This document shows positions 1 through 55,312 of a DNA stretch of 64,000 bases, one piece after another. The notes under the pieces were generated by a model that worked only from the letters and a program-made list of their open reading frames with translations, was not told the origin of the DNA and searched no databases. The position numbers were made by a program, and so were the translations under genes. Within the stretch, counting starts at the first letter, position 1; every line of letters starts with the position of its first letter. Source of the DNA: an uncultured Anaerolineaceae bacterium (GTDB taxonomy: Bacteria; Chloroflexota; Anaerolineae; Anaerolineales; Villigracilaceae); the NCBI GenBank assembly GCA_964524485.1, contig CAZGFR010000004.1, positions 3,036 through 67,035 of the forward strand. The letters are read 5' to 3'.

Positions 1-946
1 CGCCGAGCAGGTCAACGGCTGTCGCGCGGATCAGGTCCGCGGCGCTGGCGTGGTTAACGAGCGGCGGGCATCCGAAGACGAACTTCAACAGGTAGTCGCC
101 GCCCAGGGCGCGGGTCAGCTCGAAGGCGCGGCGCATCTCCGCTTCGATCTTCAGGCGCGAGGCCTCGCTCGTGAAGCGCAGCGTGCCGCTCAACTCCACC
201 TTCTCAGGAATGACGTTTTCGGTGAACCCGCCGTGGATCTGCCCGATGCTGACCACGGCTGGGTCGAACGGATCGATGCGGCGCGAGACCACGCCGTTTA
301 GCCCGACGATGACTTGACTCAGCAGGAAGAACGGGTCGACCGTTTCGTCGGGATAAGCGCCATGCCCGCCGACCCCGAAGAGGGTCCCGTACCAGGTGGT
401 GACTCCGCCGCCCGCCACGCCCGCGTTGATGCCGATCTGCCCGACGGGCGTGTGCGGGTCCACGTGCTGCGCGATGACCAGGTCCACGCCTTCGAGCGCT
501 CCATCCTGCACCATGCGCGGCGCACCGCTGATGCCTTCCTCATCCTCGGTCTCCTCCGACGGCTGAAACAGGAATCGCACGCGGCCAGGGAATTTTTCCT
601 TTGCAAGCAGCGCCGCTGCGCCCAACGCCATGCTGGTGTGGGAATCGTGGCCGCAGGCGTGCATCACGCCTGAGTTCTGCGAGGCATATTCACGGTCCTG
701 TGATTCCAGAATGGGCAGCGCATCCATATCCGCGCGGATGGCGATGGTACGGCCGTTCCCGTCGCCGATGTCAGCGACTACGCCCGTGCGTCCCACCCCG
801 CGGCGGACTCGGTAGCCGAGCTTCTCCAACTCCTGCGCCACGATCTCAGCCGTGCGCGTTACGTGAAAGCCCAACTCGGGGTGCATGTGAAAGTCACGCC
901 GCCAGTGGACGAGGTCTTCGAAAAGGGCATGAGCGGGTTTGAGCAT
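1..946 (-). CDS. M20-family amidohydrolase (N-acyl-L-amino acid amidohydrolase / hippurate hydrolase-like); C-terminus runs off the window edge
   Basis: Not in the ORF track because no stop lies in the window. My reverse translation from ATG (946-944) reads MLKPAHALFEDLVHWRRDFHMHPELGFHVTRTAEIVAQELEKLGYRV..IAIRADMDALPI..GVMHACGHDSHTSMALGAA..RFLFQPSEE. These are the metal-ligand motifs of the M20D family. Confidence 0.8.
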   Translation of the reverse strand, partial: MLKPAHALFEDLVHWRRDFHMHPELGFHVTRTAEIVAQELEKLGYRVRRGVGRTGVVADIGDGNGRTIAIRADMDALPILESQDREYASQNSGVMHACGHDSHTSMALGAAALLAKEKFPGRVRFLFQPSEETEDEEGISGAPRMVQDGALEGVDLVIAQHVDPHTPVGQIGINAGVAGGGVTTWYGTLFGVGGHGAYPDETVDPFFLLSQVIVGLNGVVSRRIDPFDPAVVSIGQIHGGFTENVIPEKVELSGTLRFTSEASRLKIEAEMRRAFELTRALGGDYLLKFVFGCPPLVNHASAADLIRATAVDLLG

Positions 947-951
947 GTCCA

Positions 952-2217
952 TCACCTGCGAATCGTCGCTTCTCGTTCAGGCCCGACGCCGATCCACTTG
1001 ACGGGTACGCCCGTCGCGGATTCGATCATCTGCACGTAGTCGCGCGCGCGCTGGGGCAGGTTCTCGAAGGAGCGCGCTGCGCGGATGTCTTCGTTCCAGC
1101 CTTTGACCGTTTGATATTGCAGGTCGACCTTGTCCAGGCTGTAGGCATCTAATTCGGCATAGCTGACGGGTTGACCGTTCAGCTTATAGCCCGTGCAGAC
1201 CTGAATCTCTTCGAGCCCGCTCAGCACGTCGAGCTTGGTCAGGCACAGTTCGGTGATGCCGCTCAGGGCCACGGCCGTCTTGACGATCTCCAGGTCCAGC
1301 CAGCCGACGCGGCGCGTGCGGCCTGTCGTGGCGGCGGTTTCGCCGAATTTCTGGTAGACCTGTGAGGCTGTGTCGTGGATCTCCGTCGGCAGCGGGCCGC
1401 CGCCCACGCGCGTGGTGTAGGCCTTGGTCACGCCGACGACGCGGGTGAGATAACGCGGCGGGATGCCGAGTCCAGCCGAGGCGGCGGAGGGGATGGTGGT
1501 CGAGGCGGTGACGAAGGGGTAGGTGCCCCAGTCGGTGTCGAGGAAGGTGCCCATCGCCTGTTCGAGCAGGAAGTGCTTGTCCGCTTTGAGGCCGTCCTGT
1601 ACCAGCGGGAAGAGTTCGCGCAGATAGGGTTTCATGCGTGCATAGTAACCGCGATACGCAGCGCGGACCTCGTCAAAGCTGAGCGCTTCACCGCCGAGCG
1701 CGATGATAATCTTGTTCTTCAATTCGAGTTGCACCTTGAGGCGCGATTCGAACATGTCGCTGGCAAAGTCCGTCCAGCGGATGCCGTTGTAGCTGACCTT
1801 GTCTGCAAAGACGGGGCCGATCCCGCGGCGTGTGGTGCCCGTTGCGCCCGCGCCTTTGGCCTCTTCGTACAGTCCATCCAGAATTTTGTGATACGGCATG
1901 ATCAGGTGTGAACGCGGCGAGACCCAGAAACGGCCATCCAGGCCGACGCCCGCCTGGTTGAGCGACTCGATCTCGTCGAGCAGCACTGCGGGATCGATGA
2001 CCACGCCGCCGCCGATCAGGCCTGTTGTCTTCTGTGCGAAGATGCCCGAGGGCACGAGGTGGATTTTGAACGTGCCGAACTCGTTGATGACCGTGTGGCC
2101 TGCGTTGTTCCCGCCATTGAAGCGCGCCACGTAGTCGGCGCTCTCGGCCAGAAAATCGACGACCTTGCCTTTGCCTTCGTCTCCCCATTGCGAACCGATC
2201 ACTGCGGTAACAGACAT
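952..2217 (-). CDS. purA: Adenylosuccinate synthetase
   Basis: From internal ATG 2217 the protein reads MSVTAVIGSQWGDEGKGKVVDFLAE..FNGGNNAGHTV (P-loop GDEGKGK and GHTV). An AGGAG SD lies 5 nt upstream of 2217. The 21-codon extension to 2280 in the ORF track is unsupported. Confidence 0.95.
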   Translation of the reverse strand: MSVTAVIGSQWGDEGKGKVVDFLAESADYVARFNGGNNAGHTVINEFGTFKIHLVPSGIFAQKTTGLIGGGVVIDPAVLLDEIESLNQAGVGLDGRFWVSPRSHLIMPYHKILDGLYEEAKGAGATGTTRRGIGPVFADKVSYNGIRWTDFASDMFESRLKVQLELKNKIIIALGGEALSFDEVRAAYRGYYARMKPYLRELFPLVQDGLKADKHFLLEQAMGTFLDTDWGTYPFVTASTTIPSAASAGLGIPPRYLTRVVGVTKAYTTRVGGGPLPTEIHDTASQVYQKFGETAATTGRTRRVGWLDLEIVKTAVALSGITELCLTKLDVLSGLEEIQVCTGYKLNGQPVSYAELDAYSLDKVDLQYQTVKGWNEDIRAARSFENLPQRARDYVQMIESATGVPVKWIGVGPEREATIRR

Positions 2218-2263
2218 TGTTTCTCCTGATTTTGCCCTGCGCGGAGTCGAAGGGCGGTGAATG

Positions 2264-2293
2264 ATGAAAAGTCTAGTCAACCCGCATTATAAT
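2264..2293 (+). promoter_or_regulatory. Candidate sigma70 promoter for guaB (ATGAAA -18- TATAAT)
   Basis: A perfect TATAAT lies at 2288-2293, 31 nt upstream of the guaB ATG. The -35 element is weak (ATGAAA, 2264-2269). Confidence 0.35.
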
Positions 2294-2323
2294 TCGGGCG
2301 TTTGATTCCATGAGGAGAGAGCC

Positions 2324-3763
2324 ATGAAAATCCTGCCTGATACCGCCTTGACGTATGACGACGTACTGCTCGTGCCGCAATATTCGGAAGCCGATTCGCG
2401 GCGTATCTTATCGACCCGTACGCAGTTGACCAAAAAGATCACCCTGCAAATCCCCATCGTCTCTGCCAACATGGACGTGGTGACTGAGAGCGAGATGGCC
2501 ATCACCATGGCTCGCGAGGGCGGCATCGGCATCATCCATCGCTTCCTGTCCATCGACGAGCAGGCGCGCCAGATCCAGCGGGTGAAGAAGGCCGAGTCCT
2601 TCATCGTGGACGACCCGATCACCATGCCCGAGACCAGTACCGTGGGCGAGGTGCAGCGCGTGGTGCAGGAGACCGGCTCGGGTGGAATCCTGATCCTGAA
2701 CGCGCGGAAGCAGTTGGTTGGCATTGTTACCACGCGAGACCTGCTCTTCGAAGACGACGCCGCCAAACCCGTCACCGCCATCATGCAGCGCAAGGTCATC
2801 ACTGCGCCGCGCGATACAACCTTGAAGCAGGCTGAGGGATTACTGCACGATCACCGCATCGAGAAATTGCCGCTGGTGGACGAGGGCGGTCAGGTCACGG
2901 GGCTGGTCACCTTGAAGGACATCATGAAGATCACGCAGTTTCCCAAGGCCACCAAGGACTCGCGCGGACGGCTGGCCGTCGGCGCGGCGGTGGGGGTGCG
3001 TGAAAAGGAGATGCGCCGCGTGGAAGCCATGCTCGAAGCGGGCGCGGACTGCATCGTGGTTGACATCGCCCACGGCGACTCACATCTGGAGATCGAGATG
3101 ATCAAACGCATCCGCCGCGCCTTCCCCGAGGCGCAGATCATCGGCGGGAACGTCGCCACGGCGGACGGGACCAGGCGCCTGATCGACGCGGGGGCGGACG
3201 CCGTCAAGGTGGGCGTGGGACCTGGCTCGATCTGCATCACGCGCATCGTGGCGGGATCAGGCATCCCGCAGTTGACAGCGGTCATCGCATGCGTGGAGGC
3301 AGCCCGCCCGTACGGGATTCCCATCATTGCGGACGGCGGCATCCGTCAGCCGGGTGACCTGGCCAAGGCCATGGCGGCAGGCGCGTCCACAGCCATGATC
3401 GGCAGCCTCTTGGCGGGCACCGACGAAAGCCCGGGCTTGATCCTGACCCGCCGCGGACATCGCTATAAAGCCTCGCGCGGCATGGCTTCGCGCGGCGCCG
3501 CCATCGACCGCAACCACCGCGAAGGCAGCGACCTGACGCAGGAGGAGATCGAAGAGTACGTGGCCGAGGGCGTCGAAGCGGCCGTGCCGTATCGCGGCAA
3601 GGCGCGTGAGGTGCTGACCCAGTTGGTCGGCGGACTGCAATCGGGCATGAGCTATAGCGGCGCGTCCACGCTGGAGGAGTTCACGCAGAAGGCCATCTTC
3701 GTGCGCATGACCGGCGCGGGCCTGCGCGAGTCGGGTCCGCATGACGTGGAGTTGTTGACATAA
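2324..3763 (+). CDS. guaB: Inosine-5'-monophosphate dehydrogenase with CBS pair
   Basis: The protein reads [42 protein letters not shown]. It has the catalytic loop [20 protein letters not shown] and the [11 protein letters not shown] motif. A GAGGAG SD lies upstream. Confidence 0.95.
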
Positions 3764-3775
3764 GTTCGCCATGTC

Positions 3776-3802
3776 ATTGCGAGGGCGTTAGCCCGAAGCA
3801 AT
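3776..3802 (+). other. Intergenic stem-loop (attgc-ga-gggc-gtta-gccc-gaa-gcaat)
   Basis: Read directly: outer stem attgc/gcaat, inner stem gggc/gccc, loop gtta. It sits 13 nt after the guaB stop and upstream of the real terminator. Confidence 0.4.
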
Positions 3803-3825
3803 CTCAAGGTGACAGGAAAATAAAA

Positions 3826-3855
3826 CTGGCCTGGATGATCTCCAGGCCAGTTTTT
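3826..3855. terminator. Bidirectional rho-independent terminator between convergent guaB and the plsC-like gene
   Basis: The stem is 10 bp (ctggcctgga, 3826-3835 / tccaggccag, 3841-3850) with loop tgatc. A T-run (3851-3855) follows and an A-run (aaaa) precedes it. Confidence 0.65.
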
Positions 3856-3898
3856 ATGTACCGCAAAGCACGCTAAGGCCGCGAAGATTCTTTATGAC

Positions 3899-3929
3899 CC
3901 TTTGTGTTCTTTGTGCCCTTTGTGGTTAA
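3899..3929 (-). repeat. 31-nt intergenic repeat with 9-nt periodicity, copy 1 (reverse complement ttaaccacaaagggcacaaagaacacaaagg)
   Basis: It matches 58968-58998 at 29 of 31 positions in inverted orientation. It is built of three cacRaagg-type 9-mers. Confidence 0.6.
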
Positions 3930-3932
3930 TGG

Positions 3933-4610
3933 CTAATTGCCAGTCGCGTGCTGCGCCAGCAACTCCTTCAAGCGCGGATGTCCCGCGTACACGCCGTGAT
4001 ACTTCTCGGGGATGAGCGCCGCGATGCGACACATGATCTCATCGGTGTAGCCCTTGAGGGCCGCGTCGCGATCCTTGCGCGGAAGTTCGGGCAGCGTGAA
4101 GGCGGGTCCCGCCTTCACGACGATGTGCGAGCGCTTCAATCGCTTGAGGTTCGACAGGATGACCTTGTCCTCGGTGCCCGCCAGCCCGACCGGCACGATG
4201 GGACGGTTCAGCTTGGACGCCAGGTAACTGACCCCGGGCCTGCCTTCGATCATCGAGCCGACTCGCGAACGCGTCCCTTCGGGCGCGATGACCAGGATGT
4301 TGCCCGCCTCCATCAGGCCGATGATTTTTCGCATGGCCTTCAGGTCGGGCTCGAAGCGGTTGATGAAGATCAGGTTGAAGTACTTCGCCAGGAAGCGGAA
4401 CAGCCAGATCTTCTCCCACTTTTCGGCCACGGGGATGAACACATCCCAGCGGTCGATGGCCAGGTACAGCATGGCCGAGTCGAGGATGCCGAGATGGTTG
4501 GTGGCGATGACGTACGCCCCCGTGGCGGGCAGGTTCTCGTAGCCCGAGATGTCCACGCGGGCAATGAGACGGACGACAGAGCGGATGATCCAACGCAGAA
4601 AAGTTCGCAT
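3933..4610 (-). CDS. 1-acyl-sn-glycerol-3-phosphate acyltransferase family (PlsC-like)
   Basis: It has the HxxxxD acyltransferase motif (ATNHLGILDS) and the APEGTRS motif, with an N-terminal TM segment. The start is taken at internal ATG 4610 (MRTFLRWIIRS). Confidence 0.8.
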   Translation of the reverse strand: MRTFLRWIIRSVVRLIARVDISGYENLPATGAYVIATNHLGILDSAMLYLAIDRWDVFIPVAEKWEKIWLFRFLAKYFNLIFINRFEPDLKAMRKIIGLMEAGNILVIAPEGTRSRVGSMIEGRPGVSYLASKLNRPIVPVGLAGTEDKVILSNLKRLKRSHIVVKAGPAFTLPELPRKDRDAALKGYTDEIMCRIAALIPEKYHGVYAGHPRLKELLAQHATGN

Positions 4611-4657
4611 GGGCCCAATCGTAAATCGTCCCTTGCAAATCGTCAACCGAAATACTC

Positions 4658-4687
4658 TTGCCTTTGCCTTGCGAAGCACGATATAAT
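4658..4687 (+). promoter_or_regulatory. Candidate sigma70 promoter for the ferredoxin gene (TTGCCT -18- TATAAT)
   Basis: TTGCCT lies at 4658-4663 and TATAAT at 4682-4687. An AAGGAGG SD follows at 4712-4718 and the ATG is at 4726. Confidence 0.5.
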
Positions 4688-4725
4688 GCCTTCATCTCGC
4701 TTTCCAATTCCCAAGGAGGTTCCGC

Positions 4726-5139
4726 ATGACCCACATCATTACCAGTTTGTGCGTTCGTGATCGCGGCTGCATCGAAGTCTGTCCGGTGGAGTGCATCATC
4801 CCTGGCCAGCCCGTGGCTGAATGGCCGTGGATGTACATCGACCCCGACACCTGCATCGACTGCGGCGCCTGCGTGCCCGAGTGCCCGTATGCCGCCATCT
4901 TCCCCGAAGACGAGGTCCCCTCGGCCTACACCGCCAAGGGCGGCGAATTCATCAGCAAGATCGGCCTCACAGGCCACTACGAAGGCACCAATCACCACGG
5001 CAAGCAGGTGGTGCTCGAGACCACCCAGCAGCTCGCCGCCGGCGAGGTCGTGGACCTGACCCTCGACATCAAGCCCAACTACGAGTTCTTCAAGAGCGGC
5101 CCGGGCTACGGCGCCAAGGACCAGGACACGGGTTCCTGA
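4726..5139 (+). CDS. 7Fe-type (3Fe-4S + 4Fe-4S) ferredoxin with ~75-aa C-terminal extension
   Basis: The Cys pattern SLCVRDRGCIEVCPVECI...DPDTCIDCGACVPECPYAAIF resembles FdxA-type ferredoxins. A strong SD is present. Confidence 0.85.
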   Translation: MTHIITSLCVRDRGCIEVCPVECIIPGQPVAEWPWMYIDPDTCIDCGACVPECPYAAIFPEDEVPSAYTAKGGEFISKIGLTGHYEGTNHHGKQVVLETTQQLAAGEVVDLTLDIKPNYEFFKSGPGYGAKDQDTGS

Positions 5140-5156
5140 TCGGTTCAGTACTTAAA

Positions 5157-5183
5157 GGCCAGGCGATTGCCTGGCCTTTTTTT
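5157..5183 (+). terminator. Rho-independent terminator after the ferredoxin gene
   Basis: Stem ggccaggc (5157-5164) / gcctggcc (5169-5176), loop gatt, then T7 (5177-5183). Confidence 0.7.
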
Positions 5184-5235
5184 GTCGGATTGTGCGAAAA
5201 TGATGGGGAAGATTCCACGCCAAAGGAGTTGACCG

Positions 5236-5949
5236 ATGTCCCGCCCTCGCTTGATCCAATTTGCCCTGGCCTTTTTGCTTTTGATCACCGCCTGCAACCT
5301 GCCGACGGCTGCCGCGCCCACCCTGCTTCCGACCCAGGCGGCGACAGCACTCCCCGTCAGCCCGACCGCCCCCAGCCTGCCGACTCCGCTCCCGCCGACC
5401 GAGAGTCTGCCTCCCGCCCCGACCCCCAGCCTGGCCCCGTCCTGGACGGCCACCCTGCCGCCCACGGCCGCGCCCGTCACCGTCAGCGCCACGGGCAACC
5501 TCAACGTCCGCCGCGGACCTGGGGTGGGTTACAACCCTGTCGGCGGCCTGCTCAAAGGCGAGACGGCCACCGCCACCGCCCGCGATGCCAACGGCGAATG
5601 GCTCTATATCAGCCTGGCCTCGTCCAAGCCGGGCTGGGTCTCGATCCTCACCAAGTTTTCCACCGTCAGCGGTGACGTGCAATCCCTGCCCGTGATGAAC
5701 GTGGACCCGCCCAAGCCCGCCTACTTCCGCAACTGCACCTTCCACCCCATGCTGGTCAAGCCCGCGGGGATCACCGTCCCGCCGCAGAACGAGTCGCCGC
5801 AAAACAAGGTCCAATTCAACCCGGGCGATTACGAGGTCAAGGACACCAGCGTGGCGGGCGAGCCGACCGTCATGGAGGCCACCCTGTTCGAAGGCCAGAC
5901 CATCGACATCCGCACCGACGGCATCCCCAATACGTACTCGTGCCCATAG
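5236..5949 (+). CDS. Secreted lipoprotein with bacterial SH3 domain
   Basis: A signal peptide with lipobox (LLLITAC) is followed by a Pro/Thr/Ala linker. An SH3b-like segment follows (ATGNLNVRRGPGVGYNPVGGLLKGETATATARDANGEWLYISL). Confidence 0.6.
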   Translation: MSRPRLIQFALAFLLLITACNLPTAAAPTLLPTQAATALPVSPTAPSLPTPLPPTESLPPAPTPSLAPSWTATLPPTAAPVTVSATGNLNVRRGPGVGYNPVGGLLKGETATATARDANGEWLYISLASSKPGWVSILTKFSTVSGDVQSLPVMNVDPPKPAYFRNCTFHPMLVKPAGITVPPQNESPQNKVQFNPGDYEVKDTSVAGEPTVMEATLFEGQTIDIRTDGIPNTYSCP

Positions 5950-5972
5950 CCTTGTAAGCAGGCAACAAAAAA

Positions 5973-5997
5973 ACGGACGGCGATTGCCGTCCGTTTT
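5973..5997. terminator. Bidirectional terminator between the SH3 lipoprotein gene and the convergent SEDS-PBP gene
   Basis: Stem acggacggc (5973-5981) / gccgtccgt (5986-5994), loop gatt. It is flanked by an A7 run upstream and ttt downstream. Confidence 0.6.
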
Positions 5998-6009
5998 GCT
6001 TAGGTATCG

Positions 6010-8421
6010 CTACGGCGTCATGGCCGCATTGAGCAATTCCCGTCCCACCAGGCGCGCCAACGCGGGATCATCCTCCTCCAGCGCGATGACCACCGCCAGC
6101 GGCGTGCCCTGCCAGTTGGGCTGGGTCCCGCCGAGATACCAGGTGATGGTCACATCCTCCTGCCGCGCCTGCCCGACGAATTCCCAAAAGGCATCGCCCT
6201 GCACGAGGAAGGCTTCCGCCGCCTGGTCCGCCGCCGAAGCGGGGATGGCGGTAACGGGCTCGCTCATGGGCGGGAGGATCACCCAGCCCTGCTGGGGCGT
6301 GTCCACGGCCAGGGCGATGCGCGGGGCGGGCCGCGTGCCGTGGTTCGACAGGGCCGAGGCTGCGATGGCCATCTGCAACGGGCTGACGCGCAGCGGGCTG
6401 GTCCCGTTTTGGGGCGAGGCGACCGCCACTGCCAGGCGGATCTGCGGCGTGGAGAAGAAACCCAGCCCCTTGAACAACGCCGACGATTGCTCCGCGCTGG
6501 GCTGCTTCAGCGTGGACAGGAAGGGCGTCCCCGCCGTCCCCAGCGGATAAGTTCCCTGCGCCGCGCGGTTGACCAGCGGCGCGCCCTCATCCTTGAGCAG
6601 GTCGCCGCCTTCGGCCTCGATCAGGTTCGGGTCAAAGGTGGGATGTGAGGCCATCACCAGGATCTCGCCGCTTTGCGCATTCATCAACACCGCCGCGCCG
6701 CGATGCTCCCCGAGCGACTGGTCCGCTGTGCGCTGCAAGCGCATCTCCAGGCTCAGGCGCACGTCCAGCCCGGGCGGGGGCATGCCGTACAGCAATTGGT
6801 CCCACCAGACCAGGCTGGTGGGGTTGCCTTGCAGGCCGCGCAGATAATCGTCGAGGCTGGCTTCGAGGCCGGCCTGGCCGAAGGTGGGTTGCGTGTATCC
6901 AATCACGGGGCCGAGGTCGGGGTACAGGTATTGGCGGACGTACGAGCCGCTTTCCCCGGTGGTGATGTTGAGCGGTTCGTCGCGGCGGTCGATCAGGTCG
7001 CCGCGCGGCACGTAGCGGTCGGCAATGGCGCGGCGCGGATTGTCGGTGCGGGTCAGCAGGTCGGGACTGCGCACCACGGCCCACCAGGCGGCCGCCAACG
7101 CGGCAGCCAGCAGTCCCAGGCTGAGCAGGCTCGCCAGGAGCGTGTAGGGCCGCGCAGAGGGCAGGGGAGCGGGTTCGCGCTCGGGGTGCGCGCCGATGCG
7201 CAGGAGGAACAGCAATGCGAGGAAGGAGGTCAGCAGCGACGAGCCGCCGTACGAGACGAAGGGCAACGTCACGCCCGTCAGCGGCAGGAGCCGCAGGTTG
7301 CCGCCGATGATGAGCAGGCTCTGGATGCCGAGGTAGGCGGTCAGCCCCGCCGCCAGGAAACGGCGGAAGCGGTCGGAGGCGCGCAGGGAGGCGGTCATGC
7401 CGCGGGCCAGGATCAGACCAAGGAGGCCGAGCAGGCCCAGGGTCCCGACCAGACCTGTTTCTTCGCCGATGGCCGCAAAGATGAAGTCCGAGATGGCCAC
7501 GGGGACCAGGCCCGGGCTTCCCAGCCCCGGTCCGCGGCCGAGAGTCCCGCCATTGGCCACCGCCAGCAGGGATTGGATGATCTGGTAGGAACGTCCGCTG
7601 GGGTCGGCCCACGGGTCGAGCCAGGCGTTCACGCGCACTTGCACGATGGGGATGAAGAAATAGCCGACCAGCCCCGCCAGCGCCAGGCCGAGCGTGGTGG
7701 CAAGCAGCACGCGGCGATGGTCGGTGGCGAGGAAGAGGATGACGGTGTAAAGCAGGATAAAGATGGAGGCCGTGCCCAGGTCGCGTTGAACGAGCAGGAT
7801 GAGCAGCGACAAGCCTGTGACGAACAGGGTGGGCAGGATCAGCGGAAAGGCGCTCAGGCGGACGGGTGTGCGGTCGGCGAGGTAGGCGGCCAGGTAGATG
7901 ATGAGCAGCAACTTGAGTGGTTCGGATGGTTGCAGGTAGATGCCGCAGCATCCCAGCCACAAGCGCGGACCTGCGCCGCCCGGGTTGGTGCCGAAGATCA
8001 GGGTCAGGGCGGTCAGCAGCAGCCCGCCGCTGAGAAGGACATACTTGTAACGTCGCAGGAATTGCAGGTCTTGGGGCAGACGCAGGCCGAGCAGGAACAC
8101 CACCACGCTGAGCGCCAGCCAGATCAATTGGCGCAGGCCGAAGCCCGAGTCCAGCCGCCAGATGGTGAGCATGCCCCAGCCGCTCAGGAGCAGGGCGGCG
8201 GGCAGCAGGTAGGGATCGCGGTCGGGCAGGGCGCGGCGGGTGACGGTGTCTGCCGCGATGGCCAGGGCGGCCCAGGCCGCGAATCCCAGCCAGTGCGACC
8301 AGCGCAGGTCCGTGGCAAAGGTATGCTCGCGCACCGCGGGTGAGAGCGTGAGGATGACCGAGTACAGAAAAAGGAAAACCGCCGCCCAGCGGAGCAGACG
8401 GTTTTGGAGAACGTCAGGCAT
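6010..8421 (-). CDS. Fusion protein: SEDS (FtsW/RodA-type) peptidoglycan glycosyltransferase + C-terminal PBP transpeptidase-like domain with degenerate catalytic motifs
   Basis: The N-terminal ~410 aa carry SEDS motifs (QPSEPLKL, RDLGTAS, SDFIFAAIGEETG, LPLTGVTLPFVSYGGSS). The C-terminal ~335 aa align to class B PBPs (RGDLIDRRDEPL, GAAVLMNAQSGEILVMASHPTFDPN, SPLQMAIAASALSNHG). I cannot find SxxK, SxN or KTG. The start is taken at ATG 8421 (MPDVLQNRLL). Confidence 0.85.
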   Translation of the reverse strand: MPDVLQNRLLRWAAVFLFLYSVILTLSPAVREHTFATDLRWSHWLGFAAWAALAIAADTVTRRALPDRDPYLLPAALLLSGWGMLTIWRLDSGFGLRQLIWLALSVVVFLLGLRLPQDLQFLRRYKYVLLSGGLLLTALTLIFGTNPGGAGPRLWLGCCGIYLQPSEPLKLLLIIYLAAYLADRTPVRLSAFPLILPTLFVTGLSLLILLVQRDLGTASIFILLYTVILFLATDHRRVLLATTLGLALAGLVGYFFIPIVQVRVNAWLDPWADPSGRSYQIIQSLLAVANGGTLGRGPGLGSPGLVPVAISDFIFAAIGEETGLVGTLGLLGLLGLILARGMTASLRASDRFRRFLAAGLTAYLGIQSLLIIGGNLRLLPLTGVTLPFVSYGGSSLLTSFLALLFLLRIGAHPEREPAPLPSARPYTLLASLLSLGLLAAALAAAWWAVVRSPDLLTRTDNPRRAIADRYVPRGDLIDRRDEPLNITTGESGSYVRQYLYPDLGPVIGYTQPTFGQAGLEASLDDYLRGLQGNPTSLVWWDQLLYGMPPPGLDVRLSLEMRLQRTADQSLGEHRGAAVLMNAQSGEILVMASHPTFDPNLIEAEGGDLLKDEGAPLVNRAAQGTYPLGTAGTPFLSTLKQPSAEQSSALFKGLGFFSTPQIRLAVAVASPQNGTSPLRVSPLQMAIAASALSNHGTRPAPRIALAVDTPQQGWVILPPMSEPVTAIPASAADQAAEAFLVQGDAFWEFVGQARQEDVTITWYLGGTQPNWQGTPLAVVIALEEDDPALARLVGRELLNAAMTP

Positions 8422-8426
8422 GGAGG

Positions 8427-9293
8427 TTACTTGAGGTATTTTCCAACCAGCAAATCCAGTTTTTGCCGCGTGGCGGGCGGGATGCGGTCGGGGCGGGTGA
8501 TGAGCGCGTCGGCCAGGGCGTGCTGGCAGGCGCAATCCCGTTCGGGGGTGAAGTCACGCGCCAGCAGGTGGATGGCCTCCTGCGCGATCTCGGTGTTCTT
8601 GTTGAGGGTCTGGATGACCATCTCCACCGTGACGGGCGCGGCGCTGACGTGCCACACGTCGTAGTCGGTGATGTGGGCCATCACGGCGTAGCACATCTCG
8701 GCCTCGCGCGCCAGAAAGGCCTCGGGTGAGGTGGTCATGCCGATTAGCGACATGCCCCACGAGCGGTAGGTGGTGGATTCGGCCTTGGTCGAGAAGCGTG
8801 GCCCCTCGATGGTGATGAAGGTCCCGCCGCGATGAATGGTCGCGCCCGCCTCGCGGGTGACCGACTCGAGTTGGTCGGAGAGTTCCTTGCAGAATGGATC
8901 GGCGATGCTGACATGCGCCACAAGTCCCTCGCCGAAGAAGGTCCGCTCGCGGCCTTTGGTGTTGTCGAAGATCTGGTCGGGGATGACGATGTGCCCGGGC
9001 GCGTAATCGTCGCGCAGGGAGCCGCAGGCGCTCACGCTGATGACCTGTTTCGCGCCGAGCGACTTGAGCGCGTGGATGTTGGCTCGGTAGTTGACCTCGC
9101 TGGGCGTGATGTGGTGCCCCAGCCCGTGACGGGCCAGGAAGGCCACCCGCTGCCCCTCGAGCGTGCCCACCACGATGGGCGCACTCGGTTTCCCGAAGGG
9201 CGTATCGAGATCGTACTCTTTTGTGTCTTTCAGGCCGCTCATGCTATACAAGCCCGAGCCGCCAATCACAGCGAACGAAACAGTTTCAGTCAT
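8427..9293 (-). CDS. mtnP: S-methyl-5'-thioadenosine phosphorylase
   Basis: The protein reads VSFAVIGGSGLY..FGKPS..GTLEGQRVAFLARHGLGHHITPSEVNYRANIHALKSLG, which is typical of MTAP. ATG 9293 overlaps the upstream stop (GATGACTGA). The ORF-track start at 9305 is a TTG. Confidence 0.9.
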   Translation of the reverse strand: MTETVSFAVIGGSGLYSMSGLKDTKEYDLDTPFGKPSAPIVVGTLEGQRVAFLARHGLGHHITPSEVNYRANIHALKSLGAKQVISVSACGSLRDDYAPGHIVIPDQIFDNTKGRERTFFGEGLVAHVSIADPFCKELSDQLESVTREAGATIHRGGTFITIEGPRFSTKAESTTYRSWGMSLIGMTTSPEAFLAREAEMCYAVMAHITDYDVWHVSAAPVTVEMVIQTLNKNTEIAQEAIHLLARDFTPERDCACQHALADALITRPDRIPPATRQKLDLLVGKYLK

Positions 9294-9759
9294 CTTTGCT
9301 CCCAAGTCGCAGGGTGGGTGAGACCAACGCTTCAGCCGCCAGGTTGACCAGCAGGCTGGCCTCCCCGATGCTCACCTCGTCGCCCGAGGTCAGTACGGTG
9401 GGCTGGGTGAGCATTTCCTGGTTGAGGCGGGTGCCGTTGGTCGAGCCGAGGTCCTCGACCCACCACTGTCCGTGATGATAGGAAAAGCGCGCGTGGCGCG
9501 CGGAGACGGTCTCTTCGAAGATGGGGATGTCGCAGACGGGATCGCGCCCGAGCGTGATCTCGGGCTGGATGAAATGCTTCACGGCGATGGTCTCTCCCCC
9601 CGCGCGGACCGTCAGGCTGATTCCCGCCGCCCGGCGGTTGACCAGTCCCATGGCCTCGCGGCGCACGTCCCGCCAGAAGGCGAACAAGGCCCAGGCCAGG
9701 AAACCGTACAGGGCCAGGGCCAGCAGAAGGCGCAGGGCCAGGACGATGGGGCCGCTCAT
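9286..9759 (-). CDS. Membrane-anchored FHA-domain protein (FhaB/FipA-like)
   Basis: It has an N-terminal TM segment and a C-terminal FHA domain (ITLGRDPVCDIPIFEETVSARHARFSYHHGQWWVEDLGSTNGTRLN). Its start forms an ATGA overlap with the upstream gene. Confidence 0.8.
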   Translation of the reverse strand: MSGPIVLALRLLLALALYGFLAWALFAFWRDVRREAMGLVNRRAAGISLTVRAGGETIAVKHFIQPEITLGRDPVCDIPIFEETVSARHARFSYHHGQWWVEDLGSTNGTRLNQEMLTQPTVLTSGDEVSIGEASLLVNLAAEALVSPTLRLGSKDD

Positions 9760-10580
9760 TTCGGTTTGGTGAATTTGGCGGTGGAACGGTCTTTGAGGAT
9801 CGCCGTCGGGCGGTCCGAGGCGGCAGGGTTGAGCGGGGCGGTATCCACCAGGTCAGGGCGCTGGGGCGGGTTGTCCTGCCCGAAGATGAGCGCCACCCCC
9901 GCCAGCGAGATGACATCGCCCGGGTACAACACCGACTGGCTGGTGCGCTGTCCGTTGACGAAGGTGCCGCCCGTCGAGTTCAGGTCGAACAACACGAAGC
10001 GCCCGTTGATGGCCCGCAATTGAGCATGGTTGCGCGAAATGCGTGGGTCATCGATGACCAACTGGTTGTCCATGCGGCGGCCGATGTTGACAACGCTGGC
10101 CGTCAGCGGATAGACCTTGACGCCCTCGATGATCAGGAAGGCGTTTTCGGGAATATGGTCTGCCTCCTTCGGCGCCTGGGGAGTCTCGTTGGGCATGCCT
10201 TTTGTCTCAGCCATAGGTTCCACACGATGAGAGGCCAGCACACTGGCGTCGTTCTGGGGATGGGATGCGTCGGTCGAAATGGTGATCGCAGGCGGCGAGG
10301 CAAATTGCAAGCCCGCCTCCTGTCCCGCCGACTTGAGAGCCTCGATCAGGGTTTCCAGCAGGTGTGGGTCCTGCCAGCGGGTCGCATCCTCAGGGTTCAC
10401 GATGATGGTGTACACGTTCGGCGCCAGGTCCCCGCCGTCCGTCTGTTGCACAAGGTTGCCCTGCATCGCGGCAGCCAGTTTCTGAGATACGCGGGATTCC
10501 ACGCTCTGGCCCGGCAGGACGCTCATCAACCGCACCTCGATCAGATTTTGCAGGCGGGCTTCCAGGTCGTTGAGATTCAT
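9756..10580 (-). CDS. FhaA-like protein (DUF3662-type N-domain + C-terminal FHA domain)
   Basis: The N-terminus reads MNLNDLEARLQNLIE..PNVYTIIVNPEDATRW. The C-terminal FHA domain reads VVNIGRRMDNQLVIDDPRISRNHAQLRAINGRFVLFDLNSTGGTFVNGQR. The start is taken at ATG 10580. Confidence 0.8.
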   Translation of the reverse strand: MNLNDLEARLQNLIEVRLMSVLPGQSVESRVSQKLAAAMQGNLVQQTDGGDLAPNVYTIIVNPEDATRWQDPHLLETLIEALKSAGQEAGLQFASPPAITISTDASHPQNDASVLASHRVEPMAETKGMPNETPQAPKEADHIPENAFLIIEGVKVYPLTASVVNIGRRMDNQLVIDDPRISRNHAQLRAINGRFVLFDLNSTGGTFVNGQRTSQSVLYPGDVISLAGVALIFGQDNPPQRPDLVDTAPLNPAASDRPTAILKDRSTAKFTKPK

Positions 10581-10590
10581 AGGTAAAAGC

Positions 10591-10619
10591 ATTATAGAAG
10601 GTCAAAGGGGATTCCGCAA
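10591..10619 (-). promoter_or_regulatory. Candidate sigma70 promoter (TTGCGG -17- TATAAT) only 10 nt upstream of the fhaA-like ATG
   Basis: The minus strand reads ggcTTGCGGaatcccctttgaccttcTATAATgcttttacctATG. There is no SD in the 10-nt gap. Confidence 0.45.
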
Positions 10620-10657
10620 GCCTTGTCCCTGGCCCACTGCTCCTACTCAAACGGATG

Positions 10658-10684
10658 AAAAAAACTCCCCCGCGCGGGGGGAGT
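10658..10684 (-). terminator. Rho-independent terminator of the zinc-ribbon gene
   Basis: The minus strand reads actcccccc-gcgc-gggggagt followed by T7. On the plus strand this is an A7 run at 10658-10664 followed by the stem-loop at 10664-10684. Confidence 0.75.
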
Positions 10685-10689
10685 GGAAT

Positions 10690-11274
10690 TTACAGGCGGT
10701 TTCCGCAGTTCGGGCATTGTTTCTCGCCCGCCTTGACCACGAAGCCGCAGTTGGGGCAGGTCCCCGGTTGGACCTTACCTAGCGGCGCGCCGCACGCGAC
10801 GCACGACGGCTCGCCGACCGGGTTGGCCGTGCCGCAGTATTCGCATTCCATGCGGCGCAGGCGCTCGGAGAGCCTTTTTGAAGCGCCGCGGGCCTGGGCG
10901 CTGGAGGCGATCACCTGCCAGACGCGGTCGCTGAGGGTCAGGTTTTCGATGTCCTGGGCCAGGTCGTCTAGGCGGCCGAGCAGGGCGAAGGGGTTTCGCA
11001 GGGCGGAGAGGGCGGTGGTCCCCAGGCTGGCGGCCACGCCGAACCAGGCCTGTTGGCCGATCTCGGCCATGACTCCATCCTCGAACTTCTGGATCGAGAC
11101 CGTCATGGCGGTGTCGCCGCCCGAAGCCGCCCCGGGGCGGGTGCTGATCTGCACGATCATCTTGTCGCCGTTGCCGAGGGTCTGGGCGCGCAGGTTGCCG
11201 CGGTTGAACTCCGCCAGAAGAGCCTGCGCCACTTCTGCTGGGGTGATATCGCCGTGAAAAACTTTTCGGTCCAT
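10690..11274 (-). CDS. Double zinc-ribbon protein with ~130-aa N-terminal domain of unknown function
   Basis: From ATG 11274 the protein reads MDRKVFHGDITPAEVAQALLAEF. Its C-terminus carries CEYCGTANPVGEPSCVACGAPL and CPNCGFVVKAGEKQCPNCG. The 99-codon extension in the ORF track overlaps the divergent gene and is rejected. Confidence 0.6.
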   Translation of the reverse strand: MDRKVFHGDITPAEVAQALLAEFNRGNLRAQTLGNGDKMIVQISTRPGAASGGDTAMTVSIQKFEDGVMAEIGQQAWFGVAASLGTTALSALRNPFALLGRLDDLAQDIENLTLSDRVWQVIASSAQARGASKRLSERLRRMECEYCGTANPVGEPSCVACGAPLGKVQPGTCPNCGFVVKAGEKQCPNCGNRL

Positions 11275-11281
11275 GTTTTCG

Positions 11282-11289
11282 ATTATAAT
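11282..11289. promoter_or_regulatory. Palindromic ATTATAAT box giving a TATAAT -10 hexamer on both strands of a 51-nt divergent intergenic region
   Basis: gattataatc (11281-11290) is its own reverse complement. On the minus strand TATAAT ends 7 nt before ATG 11274. On the plus strand it lies 36 nt before ATG 11326. Confidence 0.35.
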
Positions 11290-11325
11290 CGCCTTTGCGA
11301 TTCTCCTTAATCCATACCTACGAAT

Positions 11326-11949
11326 ATGAAGAGAAACTGGTTTCAACCCCTGCTTGGGCTGCTTATTTTTGTTGCCGTTTTCGGGCTGATGCTGGCCGCC
11401 CCCGGTCAGATCATTGCGCGCGCCCAGCAGCCGACAGGCTCCGTCCCCACGGTGACCGGCACGCCGGTGGCGGCCTACATTATCGTCAACTCCGACCAGG
11501 AGCAGATCAACGTGCGTGGCGGCCCGTCCACCTACCTGTACCCGCCCATTGGCGTGCTCCTCGCGGGGCAACAGGTCCCGGCCGTGGGACGTTCGCCCGG
11601 CGGCGACTGGATCCAGATCGTCTACCCGGGCGTGCCCGGCTCGGTGGGATGGGTCTATGCCCCGCTGGTGAAGATCTCGCCCGGCGCGAACCTGCCCATC
11701 GTCGAGCCGCCGCCTACGCCCACCCCGGTCTCGACCCCGACCATTGACCCCACGCTGCAGGCCGCTTTCATCACCCCCGAGGCTGCCACCCGCATGCCCA
11801 CCTATACGCCGCCCGCGCCGTTGGCCATCCCCACCTTCACGGACGCCAGCTCCGCACCCAGCGGAATCCCGATGGGCCTGCTGATCTTCGGCCTCGGCTT
11901 CATCGGCGCCCTGGGACTGGTCATCTCCTTCGTCCGCGGCGGACGCTAA
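11326..11949 (+). CDS. Exported SH3b-domain protein with C-terminal membrane anchor
   Basis: A signal peptide is followed by an SH3b-like segment (INVRGGPSTYLYPPIGVLLAGQQVPAVGRSPGGDWIQIVYPG). A Pro/Thr-rich linker and a C-terminal TM segment (GLLIFGLGFIGALGLVISFV) follow. Confidence 0.6.
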   Translation: MKRNWFQPLLGLLIFVAVFGLMLAAPGQIIARAQQPTGSVPTVTGTPVAAYIIVNSDQEQINVRGGPSTYLYPPIGVLLAGQQVPAVGRSPGGDWIQIVYPGVPGSVGWVYAPLVKISPGANLPIVEPPPTPTPVSTPTIDPTLQAAFITPEAATRMPTYTPPAPLAIPTFTDASSAPSGIPMGLLIFGLGFIGALGLVISFVRGGR

Positions 11950-11967
11950 TCACGCAGGAATCAAAAA

Positions 11968-11991
11968 GACCGACGTGCGTCGGTCTTTTTT
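11968..11991. terminator. Bidirectional rho-independent terminator between convergent genes
   Basis: Stem gaccgac (11968-11974) / gtcggtc (11979-11985), loop gtgc, then T6. An A5 run lies upstream. Confidence 0.7.
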
Positions 11992-12006
11992 GTTGTCAAG
12001 ATTTCG

Positions 12007-12384
12007 CTAGTTCTGGCAGGAGCAGGAACCGCCGCAGCCACAGCCTTCTTCGCCGTGGTCGTGACCCTTCTTGGCAGACGGGCTGTCCACGAGGAAGCCC
12101 GCGCCGTGGGTCGGGTCATTGACGAAGTCCACGGTGGCGCCGCGCAGGTAGTCGATAGAAACGTTGTCCACGACCACTTTGATGCCGTTGCTGTCGAAGG
12201 TGGTGTCCACGTCGCGGAAGTTGTTGTCGAGCGCCATGCCGAAGTTCACACTGCAGCATCCGCCGCCCGCCACGTACACACGCAGGGCGTAGCCTTCGAG
12301 CTTGCGCTCGTCCATGATATTTTTGACAGCCTGGGCGGCTGAGGTGGTGATGGTCAGGGTCTGGGTTTCGATTTCCTGTAACAT
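12007..12384 (-). CDS. HesB/IscA-family iron-sulfur cluster insertion protein with Cys/Gly-rich tail
   Basis: The protein reads ITTSAAQAVKNIM..GYALRVYVAGGGCCSVNFGMAL..IDYLRGATVDFVND and ends in the tail GCGCGGSCSCQN. ATG 12384 has an AGGAGA SD. The consensus promoter lies inside the ORF-track extension. Confidence 0.85.
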   Translation of the reverse strand: MLQEIETQTLTITTSAAQAVKNIMDERKLEGYALRVYVAGGGCCSVNFGMALDNNFRDVDTTFDSNGIKVVVDNVSIDYLRGATVDFVNDPTHGAGFLVDSPSAKKGHDHGEEGCGCGGSCSCQN

Positions 12385-12418
12385 GTTCGTCTCCTGTGAT
12401 TCAGGGGTAAGTGGATGG

Positions 12419-12447
12419 ATATTATCAGAATTTAGCAGGGCTGTCAA
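12419..12447 (-). promoter_or_regulatory. Near-consensus sigma70 promoter for the HesB/IscA gene (TTGACA -17- TAATAT)
   Basis: The minus strand reads gcgTTGACAgccctgctaaattctgaTAATATcc. On the plus strand these are tgtcaa at 12442-12447 and atatta at 12419-12424. Confidence 0.6.
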
Positions 12448-12457
12448 CGCAAAAATA

Positions 12458-12660
12458 TCAGAGCGCCCAGGCCAGCATCAGGCCGAAGAGGGCGACCACC
12501 AATCCGATGTGCAGGAACAGGTTGGAGGTCAGCAGGATGTTGCCTGCGGGCAGCAGGAATTGCAGGAGCAGATTCAGCAGGATGAGCCCGATGCCGAGCA
12601 GCGGCAGGAGTCCCTTGCGGTGGGCCAGGTATTCGGACAGAACATCAAGCAGTTTTGACA

Positions 12661-12661
<1 letters not shown>
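12458..12661 (-). CDS. Small (67 aa) two-TM membrane protein, translationally coupled to hflX
   Basis: The sequence is hydrophobic (LLPLLGIGLILLNLLLQFLL..LFLHIGLVVALFGLMLAWAL). Its ATG overlaps the hflX TGA (TGATG at 12659-12663). Confidence 0.45.
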
Positions 12662-14059
<1,398 letters not shown>

Positions 14060-14079
<20 letters not shown>

Positions 14080-15316
14080 CAGGTTGTATACGGCTCGAGT
14101 CTAAACTGTCGAATAATTTGGTCAGGCGCGGATCGATGGCGTCGGAGCGCGCGGGGATCAGGACATGGAATGTGGAACCAGGCATTTTCTTTTCATCGTG
14201 ACCTTCCGATTCGACCCAGATGGTACCGCCATGTGCTTCCACGATACCGCGCGCGATGGCCAGTCCCAGGCCTGGCCCGCCGCCTTTGAACTTGGTCTTG
14301 CCGCTGGAGTGCAGGTCCACGCGGCCCAACTGGCCGAACTTCTCGAAGATCAAGGCCTGGTTCTCGGGCGAGATGCCGATGCCTGTATCTGCGATGGTGA
14401 CCTCGATGAAGCCTGGCAGGGTGCGGCCGTTGATGAAGATGGAGCCCTTGTCGGGTGTGAACTTGATGGCGTTGCTCAGGATATTGCGCAGGGCCTGGTA
14501 CAGGCGTTCGGGGTCGGCAAAGATCCAGGTGTCGCTGCCGCTGAACTTCCTCAGGTCCAGGTTTTGCTGGCGTTCGAGGATGGTGGGCATCAACTCATTG
14601 CGGAGCAGGTCCAGCAGTTGGCCGATCTGGACGGGCTGCAAATTCAGCGAGAGCAGGTGGTTGTCGATCAACGAGACGTCGATCATGTCGTCCACGATCT
14701 GGCGCAGGCGGTTGATGCCGCCGTTCATGCCTTCCAGCAGGTTGTCGATGGTCTTTTGCTGGAGCGACGCCGCCAGGTCGCGGATCATCGAGGCGTAGCC
14801 CTCGATCAGGGTCAGCGGGGTCTTCAACTCGTGGGCCGCCACCGCGATGAAGCCCGACTTGCTGCGGTCGAGCTGTTCCATCTTCTTTTGCACGTCCGAC
14901 ATCTCGGTGGAGATGTGGGTCAGGCGGGTCTCCATCTCGTACCGCGAGACGACCTCCAGGCCGTAGCTGAAGACGGGAATGACCGTGGCGATATAGTCGA
15001 GCGCATCCTGCTCGCTCAGGGTCTCGCGGGCCACTTCGATGGTGAGGCTCAGGATGCGGTTCATCACGAAGGCCACGTGATACTGGCCCTGGTCGAGGTC
15101 GGTCTCGGTGGGGGAGCGCGCCCAGTCATACAGGATCGGCTCCAGCCAGGCCGAGTCGCCTGTGATGACCGCCTGCACCATCAGATCGTAGAAACGTCCG
15201 AGTTCGGCGACAAAGCTTTCGCGCACCCCTGTCCCGCGGGCAAGGGTTTGAGAGACGCGCTGAATCCAGGGTTCACGGACCTGGGTGAGAAGTTCGGGAA
15301 CGATCATTTCTCCCAA
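14060..15316 (-). CDS. Cytoplasmic sensor histidine kinase
   Basis: It has a HisKA H-box (FIAVAAHELKTPLT), an N box (LRNILSNAIKFT) and G boxes (DTGIGI, GGPGLGLAI). No TM segments are visible. The start is uncertain: 15316 is a TTG and an ATG lies at 15307. Its 3' end overlaps hflX by 20 nt. Confidence 0.85.
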
Positions 15317-15349
15317 GTGTACGCCGACTTTGTCAGTTTGAACATGATA

Positions 15350-42514: not shown

Positions 42515-42515
42515 G

Positions 42516-44204: not shown

Positions 44205-44207
44205 GGG

Positions 44208-54242: not shown

Positions 54243-54275
54243 GGCCAAAGCCTCACCTTTTATTTTTTTCCGTCC

Positions 54276-54788: not shown

Positions 54789-54792
54789 ACAG

Positions 54793-55284: not shown

Positions 55285-55312
55285 GATTAAATTATATCGC
55301 ACCTGGCACACA

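Follow-up and report, generated by a model that had tools for sequence, protein, structure and literature searches.

Why would a bacterium keep, covalently joined to its cell-wall polymerase, a transpeptidase domain that has lost its catalytic residues? The question is posed by one gene in a 64-kb stretch of DNA from an uncultured Anaerolineaceae bacterium of the Chloroflexota (contig CAZGFR010000004.1; the whole stretch is called the window below). The gene encodes an 803-residue protein in which a SEDS (FtsW/RodA-type) glycosyltransferase is followed by a domain resembling a class B penicillin-binding protein (PBP). In most bacteria the wall is built at its core by pairs of a SEDS protein and a class B PBP, against which beta-lactams are mainly directed, and the control of the polymerase half by the PBP half is an active question. 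Residue numbers refer to the 803-residue protein, L numbers to loci and P numbers to retrieved proteins.

The fusion, proposed in a preliminary description made from the letters of the window, is real: one open reading frame (ORF), starting with the ATG at 8421, encodes both halves (Table 1). A longer form starting with a TTG at 8535 was rejected, as it overlaps the upstream gene for S-methyl-5'-thioadenosine phosphorylase (MTAP) and orthologs align from residue 1. We searched 5.8 billion proteins with the C-terminal 376 residues and obtained 388 matches; among the best 120, at 49-75% identity, most are visibly fused to SEDS, and the named ones mostly bear the labels Anaerolineales, Anaerolineae or Chloroflexota. 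A scan of one genome per GTDB species revealed relatives in 496 genomes. Locus counts below refer to the best 80 of these 496, which include metagenome-assembled genomes (MAGs) named Anaerolinea thermophila, Brevefilum fermentans and Candidatus Villigracilis, and column counts refer to 77 sequences from this set. All 80 loci carry the full Anaerolineales-type fusion of about 805 residues, frameshifted in two long-read assemblies. The closest two, L001 and L002 from Anaerolineales/Chloroflexi MAGs, match window positions 1-17,083 (about 17 kb) at about 91.5% nucleotide identity.

The protein retains the order of parts expected of a SEDS polymerase followed by a class B PBP, namely an N-terminal membrane helix (residues 424-450), a pedestal and the alpha/beta core of the penicillin-binding fold. 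Residues 94-412 match the Pfam family FTSW_RODA_SPOVE (8e-75). Residues 473-551 match PBP_dimer_2 (PF21922) with 24.2 bits, just below the cut-off of 27, and this family appears in the precomputed annotation of most orthologs. For the Transpeptidase family, the best matching stretch covers the first 41 of 299 profile positions (residues 575-626) and ends just short of the Ser-x-x-Lys position. Hydropathy peaks at residues 432-450, within a helix spanning residues 424-450 in the AlphaFold2 (AF2) model, and no hydrophobic segment occurs beyond residue 470. The C-terminus of the SEDS domain aligns with the end of transmembrane helix 10 of RodA. The topology fits a simple end-to-end fusion, in which RodA helix 10 ends in the cytoplasm and is followed by a linker and then by the former PBP anchor helix.

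Class B PBPs are defined catalytically by Ser-x-x-Lys, Ser-x-Asn and Lys-Thr/Ser-Gly, and the window protein has none of the three. We mapped these motifs with a profile of 31 orthologs aligned to PDB sequences, following the alignment through the whole domain. In sequence searches against solved structures the best matches were PbpA-like class B PBPs, with alignments ending at YPLGTA, immediately before the catalytic serine. This alignment to solved structures, a check that the preliminary description had proposed, placed neither a serine nucleophile nor a Lys-Thr-Gly box in the domain: the S-T-F-K of the Eggerthella lenta PbpA-like structure 4MNR falls on T-A-G-T. The BLAST alignment to the intact relative P0222 breaks off at exactly the same place, T629. 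At the serine position the 77 orthologs have Thr (46), Ser (16), Asp (6), Asn (5), Glu (2), Pro (1) or Lys (1). The position of the general-base lysine is occupied by Leu, Thr, Gln, Ala, Asn, Asp, Val or Arg and never by Lys, in agreement with the earlier claim that Ser-x-x-Lys is missing; this lysine is also absent from all 65 other full-length representatives examined from the wider fusion clade.

The second motif has disappeared with its surroundings. The distance from the Ser-x-x-Lys helix to the PLQMA helix is 123 residues in 4MNR, against 42 in the profile of the family, so the region bearing Ser-x-Asn has been deleted. The same shortening is seen against P0222, with 51 residues from the serine position to SPLQMA in the window protein and 133 in the intact relative. 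The segment had been described as cut to about 15 residues before ALFKGLGF, and exactly fifteen separate T632 from that string. Replacement of the Lys-Thr-Gly-Thr(-Ala) box by EFVGQA had been placed at 6166-6183, which is exact; the box aligns with E747-F-V749, and across orthologs its three columns contain S/E, H/W/Y/F and V/I/T. The strings quoted for the domain are all present (HPTFDPN, NRAAQGTYPLGTAGTPFLSTL, ALFKGLGF, SPLQMAIAASALSNHG, EFVGQA, TWYLGGTQP and AVVIALE). The coordinates given for the Ser-x-x-Lys region were off by no more than a few codons: YPLGTAGTPF occupies 6520-6549, and the Asn of NRAAQG starts at 6570. Matches to the patterns SxxK, SxN and K[TS]G elsewhere in the domain of some orthologs lie outside the aligned catalytic columns; we disregarded them as chance. 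The preliminary description had left it to be checked whether orthologs share the degenerate motifs, and they are common to the 77 aligned sequences. This loss is far beyond chance.

The domain nevertheless appears to fold. A full-length AF2 model, calculated from 54 sequences, has a mean pLDDT (per-residue confidence) of 92.5 and a pTM of 0.87, with no segment below 50; it supersedes an earlier model of the C-terminal 376 residues alone (pLDDT 76), which used a shallower alignment. Foldseek matched the extracellular part of the model to 4MNR (E 7e-18, target-normalised TM-score 0.67, root-mean-square deviation 3.6 Å), and the group of 4MNR, 4JBF and Mycobacterium tuberculosis PbpA (3UN7, about 0.65) falls at target TM-scores of 0.63-0.67. 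The nearest structures of the C-terminal half are all of PbpA type, and in the model this half has a PbpA-like fold. The five-stranded sheet, the first and last helices and the helix that should bear the serine are retained, and the helical subdomain is reduced to two short helices. An apt description of the protein is "SEDS polymerase with a PbpA-derived pseudo-transpeptidase"; the name "penicillin-binding protein" should be avoided.

The polymerase half, by comparison, is well preserved, as the preliminary description had supposed in calling it apparently intact. It belongs to the SEDS family by its PF01098 score (252 bits against a cut-off of 26.4), while the FtsW and RodA equivalog models, at 253 and 214 bits, both stay below their cut-offs of about 337 and assign it to neither subfamily. 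The domain matches Thermus RodA (6BAR, 5e-34) and also Escherichia coli RodA (8TJ3_B). The essential Asp255 of Thermus RodA, in extracellular loop 4, has its counterpart in Asp312, and E167 and K170 lie in QPSEPLK. Among the 77 orthologs QPSEPLK, SDF and EExG are invariant and PFVSYGGSS is invariant or nearly so. Judged by these residues, the SEDS half looks fully competent as a predicted lipid II polymerase.

To describe the selection acting on each part we calculated pairwise ratios of nonsynonymous to synonymous substitution (dN/dS, Nei-Gojobori), domain by domain. Against the two closest genomes, L001 and L002, the ratio is 0.05-0.13 in every domain and 0.08-0.13 in the pseudo-domain. For more distant pairs it is 0.10-0.18 in the SEDS domain and pedestal, and 0.18-0.56 in the pseudo-domain. 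Thus, purifying selection acts on the dead domain too, which is less constrained than the other parts and yet clearly not neutral. Mean pairwise identity is highest in the pedestal (0.73), followed by the SEDS domain (0.68), the head of the PBP domain (0.65) and the remaining pseudo-domain (0.43-0.50). No part of the protein is better conserved than the pedestal, where 20 of 90 columns are invariant; the pseudo-domain has 11 such columns.

The relatives of the fusion point to its origin. In L091, a Chloroflexi MAG, genes for FhaA, FhaB and MTAP are followed by separate SEDS (426 residues) and PbpA (481 residues) genes that overlap by 4 nt. The order MTAP-SEDS-PbpA is found in L085, again with a 4-nt overlap, and in L090, where the two genes are adjacent. 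The PbpAs of these three loci (466-481 residues) have all three motifs intact, in contrast to the single ORF of the window. Because other Chloroflexota have the same FhaA-FhaB-MTAP operon with a separate rodA and an intact pbpA, the fusion gene is an ortholog of the unfused, active-type RodA-PbpA pair.

Between these forms stands a third group. When 1.84 billion cluster representatives were searched with a profile, 880 clusters matched at E <= 1e-30, and most full-length matches were long fusions of 850-900 residues, which keep the helical subdomain of about 80 residues and have degenerate catalytic residues. In these the Ser-x-x-Lys lysine is never present, S-C-N has become G-C-P in most and the Lys-Thr-Gly segment is gone. 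One of them, L082, lies in the same FhaA-FhaB-MTAP context as the window gene. Since the long fusions are degenerate as well, the loss of catalytic residues appears from the alignments to be older and wider than the short form. A cysteine pair (C...G-C-P, equivalent to C...S-C-N of the intact enzyme, about residues 674 and 694 of P0222) is kept in 57-60 of 66 aligned sequences (P0123-P0269). This suggests that a conserved disulfide in the helical subdomain of the long fusions persisted when the catalytic residues were lost; in the short form both cysteines went with the deletion.

Only one fused representative, P0222 (901 residues), has STFK, SCN and KTGT. It is 46% identical to the window protein over residues 88-629. 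We considered it as the missing fused and intact intermediate and rejected it, since its gene neighbourhood differs and its place in the tree is among intact PbpAs that are not fused; we treat it as a separate fusion or the product of a frameshift. Together with it 120 stand-alone PbpAs were retrieved, of which 72 satisfy strict patterns of all three motifs and 112 show both a Ser-x-Asn-type and a Lys-Thr-Gly-type pattern. In a phylogenetic tree the short family forms one terminal clade within the long degenerate fusions, and these are nested among intact Chloroflexota PbpAs. The simplest history starts from an overlapping rodA-pbpA pair, which was fused, then lost its catalytic residues and then, in the lineage of the window, lost the helical subdomain. 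The number of events is provisional because the tree is short and has no resampling support.

SEDS-PBP fusions as such are already known. Those of Coriobacteriia (Eggerthella lenta 4MNR, Atopobium parvulum 4JBF/4N1X and others) are the closest matches to the window protein in sequence and structure and share the order of SEDS domain, transmembrane helix, PbpA-like pedestal and PBP fold. In contrast to the window protein, which lacks all three motifs and about 80 residues, 4MNR has S-x-x-K and K-T-G, A. parvulum has S-S-F-K in the alignment, and the PBP halves have been crystallised with covalently bound beta-lactams according to the entry titles. A 2025 Microlife survey counts 117 fused proteins and terms them putative bifunctional (class B) synthases (PMC12516126). 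Our literature searches turned up this general survey of fusions, and no PBP inventory of Anaerolineae, no account of their clade and none of a class B PBP that is fused to SEDS and has degenerated naturally; the naturally dead version is apparently undescribed.

What the dead half does is best approached from what class B PBPs do besides cross-linking. A SEDS polymerase depends on its class B PBP, and FtsW is activated by its cognate partner even when this is a catalytically inactive variant (bioRxiv 10.1101/358663). The transmembrane helix of PBP2 alone stimulates RodA, and artificial SEDS-PBP fusions rescue deletion mutants and show activity (PMC10449877). The engineered E. coli RodA-PBP2 fusion (8TJ3) likewise demonstrates that covalent linkage works. 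A catalytically inactive canonical class B PBP is tolerated for division in Bacillus subtilis and Clostridioides difficile when another class B PBP is available (PMC12516126). Such laboratory-made proteins (B. subtilis PBP2B, C. difficile SpoVD, Ser-to-Ala variants in FtsW assays) demonstrate that neither activation nor assembly of SEDS proteins requires transpeptidase chemistry. These point mutants and synthetic constructs need a second PBP, whereas in Anaerolineae the loss has arisen naturally, is old and fixed, and came with a remodelled domain.

Taken together, we consider it probable that the protein is a RodA-PbpA-derived fusion whose dead PBP half serves as a built-in, non-catalytic activator module, with cross-linking performed in trans. 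As far as sequence, predicted structure and comparative genomics reach, they support the preliminary reading of the dead half as a structural or allosteric partner. The SEDS half would polymerise lipid II into glycan strands, and the attached former PBP helix and pedestal would hold or switch it into the active state in the manner of separate class B PBPs. What is left of the PBP fold, in which no acyl-enzyme could form, might act as a spacer, a scaffold, a regulatory lever or a binding site for nascent wall or a partner. The cross-links would come from elsewhere, for instance from a further class B PBP, a class A PBP or L,D-transpeptidases. The conservation of FhaA and FhaB may point to control through Ser/Thr phosphorylation as in mycobacteria. 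We infer activation by helix and pedestal, cross-linking in trans and FHA-based regulation by analogy with these systems. A role of helix and pedestal as activator or lever fits the data because the pedestal is the most conserved extracellular part.

Several points weigh against this proposal. Its support comes entirely from sequence, structure prediction and comparative genomics. Searched with a family hidden Markov model, neither the window nor the stretches up to 10 kb from the gene in the 80 genomes yielded another SEDS protein or class B PBP. No fused and intact intermediate was found within the Anaerolineae lineage, and the tree was calculated by neighbour joining from about 180 residues of the pedestal and PBP head, without bootstrap. 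Moreover, since a transmembrane helix alone can stimulate a SEDS polymerase, activation does not in itself account for the selection on about 240 residues of pseudo-domain. Finally, tryptophans that are invariant and specific to the clade (W713, W746 and W770) may be signs that the domain has taken on a new function and is not just a passive scaffold.

This last point leads to a second reading, possible but clearly less probable than a built-in activator, in which the former transpeptidase has become a binding module that grips the nascent glycan strand or stem peptide, or docks a cross-linker acting in trans (an orphan PbpA-type enzyme or a class A PBP). The domain has gained conserved residues relative to intact PbpAs. 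W713 lies in an inserted G-W element absent from intact PbpAs (conservation 1.00 in short forms, 0.86-0.91 in long ones), W746 replaces the glycine before Lys-Thr-Gly (1.00 in short and near-long forms), and an inserted loop, G765-T766...W770-x-G772, is conserved in the degenerate clade and lacking in intact PbpAs. Selection persists over the entire domain, and cooperation between two class B PBPs has a precedent (PMC12516126). These tryptophans may, on the other hand, serve only to repack a core that no longer has its active site and helical subdomain, and neither W746 nor W770 is conserved in the deepest degenerate forms.

The ligand or partner is likewise hypothetical. An intact PbpA-type class B PBP lacking a SEDS neighbour, P0415, occurs on three independent contigs (L093-L095; GCA_020634795.1 and GCA_020634835.1) from MAGs labelled Anaerolineales, in a conserved context of low-molecular-weight phosphatase, PbpA and FAD oxidase; on this sequence evidence it is a candidate cross-linker acting in trans. 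When intact PbpAs on long contigs were checked for co-occurrence with the fusion, none, P0415 included, came from a MAG also represented among L001-L080. P0377 is doubtful as a second orphan, since another contig of the same assembly (L097) has a near-identical downstream context with MTAP-SEDS upstream. In its fullest form, which we offer tentatively, this second reading holds that the Anaerolineae, as an entire class-level clade, possess a RodA-type synthase lacking a cognate D,D-transpeptidase, with a domain rebuilt around three clade-specific tryptophans at the old cleft that holds the strand or recruits the cross-linker. If so, the synthase would be intrinsically blind to beta-lactams.

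That the PBP half is a functionless relic, decaying while carried along by an essential polymerase, is very unlikely. The pseudo-domain is indeed the least conserved part (mean identity 0.43-0.50 against 0.68-0.73) and has already lost about 80 residues in the sub-clade of the window. Yet dN/dS is well below 1 in every comparison (0.08-0.56), the domain has not changed in length in any of the 80 loci and is retained by hundreds of species, it has 11 invariant columns and several invariant tryptophans and glycines, and it is modelled with high confidence. Premature stops were seen in none but the two frameshifted long-read assemblies.

Still less credible is an enzyme, transpeptidase or hydrolase, that uses non-canonical residues such as Thr629 as nucleophile. 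In 62 of 77 orthologs a Thr or Ser stands where the nucleophile was, but the other 15 have Asp, Asn, Glu, Pro or Lys there, the general-base lysine is never present, the Ser-x-Asn segment is deleted, the Lys-Thr-Gly strand has changed to S/E-aromatic-aliphatic, and the conservation list contains no alternative invariant polar triad. An assembly or frameshift artefact in the window, conceivable because a single indel could fuse the genes that overlap by 4 nt in unfused relatives (P0222 may be such a case), is refuted by independent assemblies: 78 of the 80 genomes, which come from many studies, and hundreds of metagenome contigs have the same fused degenerate ORF.

The clade amounts to a natural separation-of-function experiment, in which the chemistry and a subdomain have been removed while the membrane helix, pedestal and fold core are kept under selection. 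Comparison of short degenerate, long degenerate and intact unfused orthologs shows which parts of a class B PBP serve beyond cross-linking, and these sequences offer compact single-chain constructs for biochemistry and cryo-electron microscopy. A similar logic is known from the LytM-domain factors EnvC and NlpD, degenerate catalytic folds that activate amidases: a fold that has lost its active site regulates a partner, although the fold and the direction are different, the partner is a hydrolase instead of a synthase and the two are not fused. The findings prompt two questions about the filamentous Anaerolineae, which are abundant in sludge, sediments and groundwater: by what means their walls are cross-linked, and how sensitive they are to beta-lactams. 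For this clade the annotations "FtsW/RodA/SpoVE family protein" and "penicillin-binding protein 2" would mislead, as would the label "bifunctional" in the survey cited above.

Table 1 Features of the fusion gene and its neighbours in the window
Feature	Position	Strand	Basis or remark
Whole gene, SEDS/pseudo-class-B-PBP fusion, 803 residues	6010..8421	-	ORF list and translation; stop codon 6010-6012
SEDS (FtsW/RodA) glycosyltransferase domain, residues 1-420, ten transmembrane helices	7162..8421	-	Pfam PF01098, matches to 6BAR and 8TJ3_B; hydropathy and AF2 helices agree
E167-P-L-K170 within invariant QPSEPLK	7912..7923	-	aligns with QPLELAK of Thermus RodA
Asp312, counterpart of essential Asp255 of Thermus RodA, motif SDFIF	7486..7488	-	alignment to 6BAR; invariant in 77/77 orthologs
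Short cytoplasmic linker and eleventh transmembrane helix (residues about 424-450), former N-terminal anchor of the class B PBP	7042..7161	-	hydropathy, AF2
Juxtamembrane TDNPRR motif and probable PbpA-type pedestal, residues 461-560	6742..7041	-	Pfam PF21922, conservation
Pseudo-transpeptidase domain, residues 561-803, PBP alpha/beta core lacking catalytic residues	6013..6741	-	Foldseek, profile-to-PDB alignment
T629-A-G-T632 at the Ser-x-x-Lys position	6526..6537	-	aligned to S-T-F-K of E. lenta PbpA-like 4MNR
Helical-subdomain remnant, residues 633-679; about 80 residues including Ser-x-Asn missing	6385..6525	-	spacing against P0222 and 4MNR
E747-F-V749 at the Lys-Thr-Gly position; preceding W746 invariant and clade-specific	6175..6183	-	profile-to-PDB alignment, column counts
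MTAP gene	8427..9305	-	NCBIfam TIGR01694, 311 bits (cut-off 275)
FhaB/FipA-like membrane FHA protein	9286..9759	-	Pfam FHA 3e-20; best NCBIfam model FhaB_Rv0019c, below its cut-off
FhaA-like protein (FhaA_N and FHA)	9756..10592	-	Pfam PF12401 7e-12, FHA 7e-19
Zinc-ribbon protein heading the cluster, start codon uncertain	10690..11571	-	Pfam DZR/zinc ribbon
Predicted lipoprotein with bacterial SH3 domain	5236-5949	+	just past the 3' end of the fusion; at that position in 11/80 loci only

The neighbourhood of the fusion gene is conserved. The order zinc ribbon, FhaA, FhaB, MTAP, fusion is found in the window and in 62-71 of the 80 loci, with a ferredoxin gene convergent downstream; in the window the SH3 lipoprotein and the ferredoxin follow the fusion. 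The MTAP stop lies 5 nt before the fusion ATG. MTAP is on the strand of the fusion in 62 loci (upstream by a distance measure in 49), the FhaB-like gene is on the same strand in 71, the FhaA-like gene is present in 67, and the zinc-ribbon gene lies directly upstream of fhaA in 64. The zinc-ribbon protein has a C-terminal double zinc ribbon, its N-terminal part matches no family, and judged by its position and sequence it may be an uncharacterised member of the cluster.

The arrangement recalls the actinobacterial cluster fhaA-fhaB-pstP-rodA-pbpA-pknA-pknB (PMC6554272, PMC11898655). With the M. tuberculosis version, whose PbpA is 3UN7, the Anaerolineae locus has in common the upstream FhaA- and FhaB-like genes, a probable PbpA-type pedestal and the PbpA-like fold. 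The actinobacterial genes are separate and encode an active, beta-lactam-binding PbpA, whereas in Anaerolineae MTAP stands in the place of PstP and no kinase or phosphatase is adjacent. The window correspondingly has neither a PP2C gene between fhaB and the SEDS gene nor Ser/Thr kinase genes downstream. A complete cluster, kinase-FhaA-FhaB-PP2C-SEDS-PbpA-PASTA kinase, is present in a more distant genome (L096). MTAP lies between fhaB and the SEDS gene also in L082, L085, L090, L091 and L097, unfused Chloroflexota operons included. A methionine-salvage enzyme is here locked into a wall-synthesis operon, at the place held by PP2C in the actinobacterial-type cluster of L096.

Elsewhere in the window, a 25-kb run of paralogous sensor proteins occupies 25380-50840 on the reverse strand, with one NMT1-type binding protein (35588-36562) among them. 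Six of its nine large genes were scanned; they include dCache/HAMP/GAF and MASE11-GAF proteins, a hybrid kinase of PAS-GAF-HisKA-HATPase-REC type and a 1297-residue protein containing four GAF domains. The other three lie at 40490-46124, and a pair of short genes at 50018-50840 resemble single receiver domains by their N-terminal sequence. Three small ORFs at 53790-55371 (reverse strand) have a third-position GC of 0.53-0.60, compared with about 0.8 elsewhere, a local GC of 0.55-0.57 and no NCBIfam match; this stretch is probably a foreign insertion. At 59168-62857, also on the reverse strand, a 1229-residue protein combines a PMT_2-type membrane glycosyltransferase with an NHL-repeat beta-propeller.

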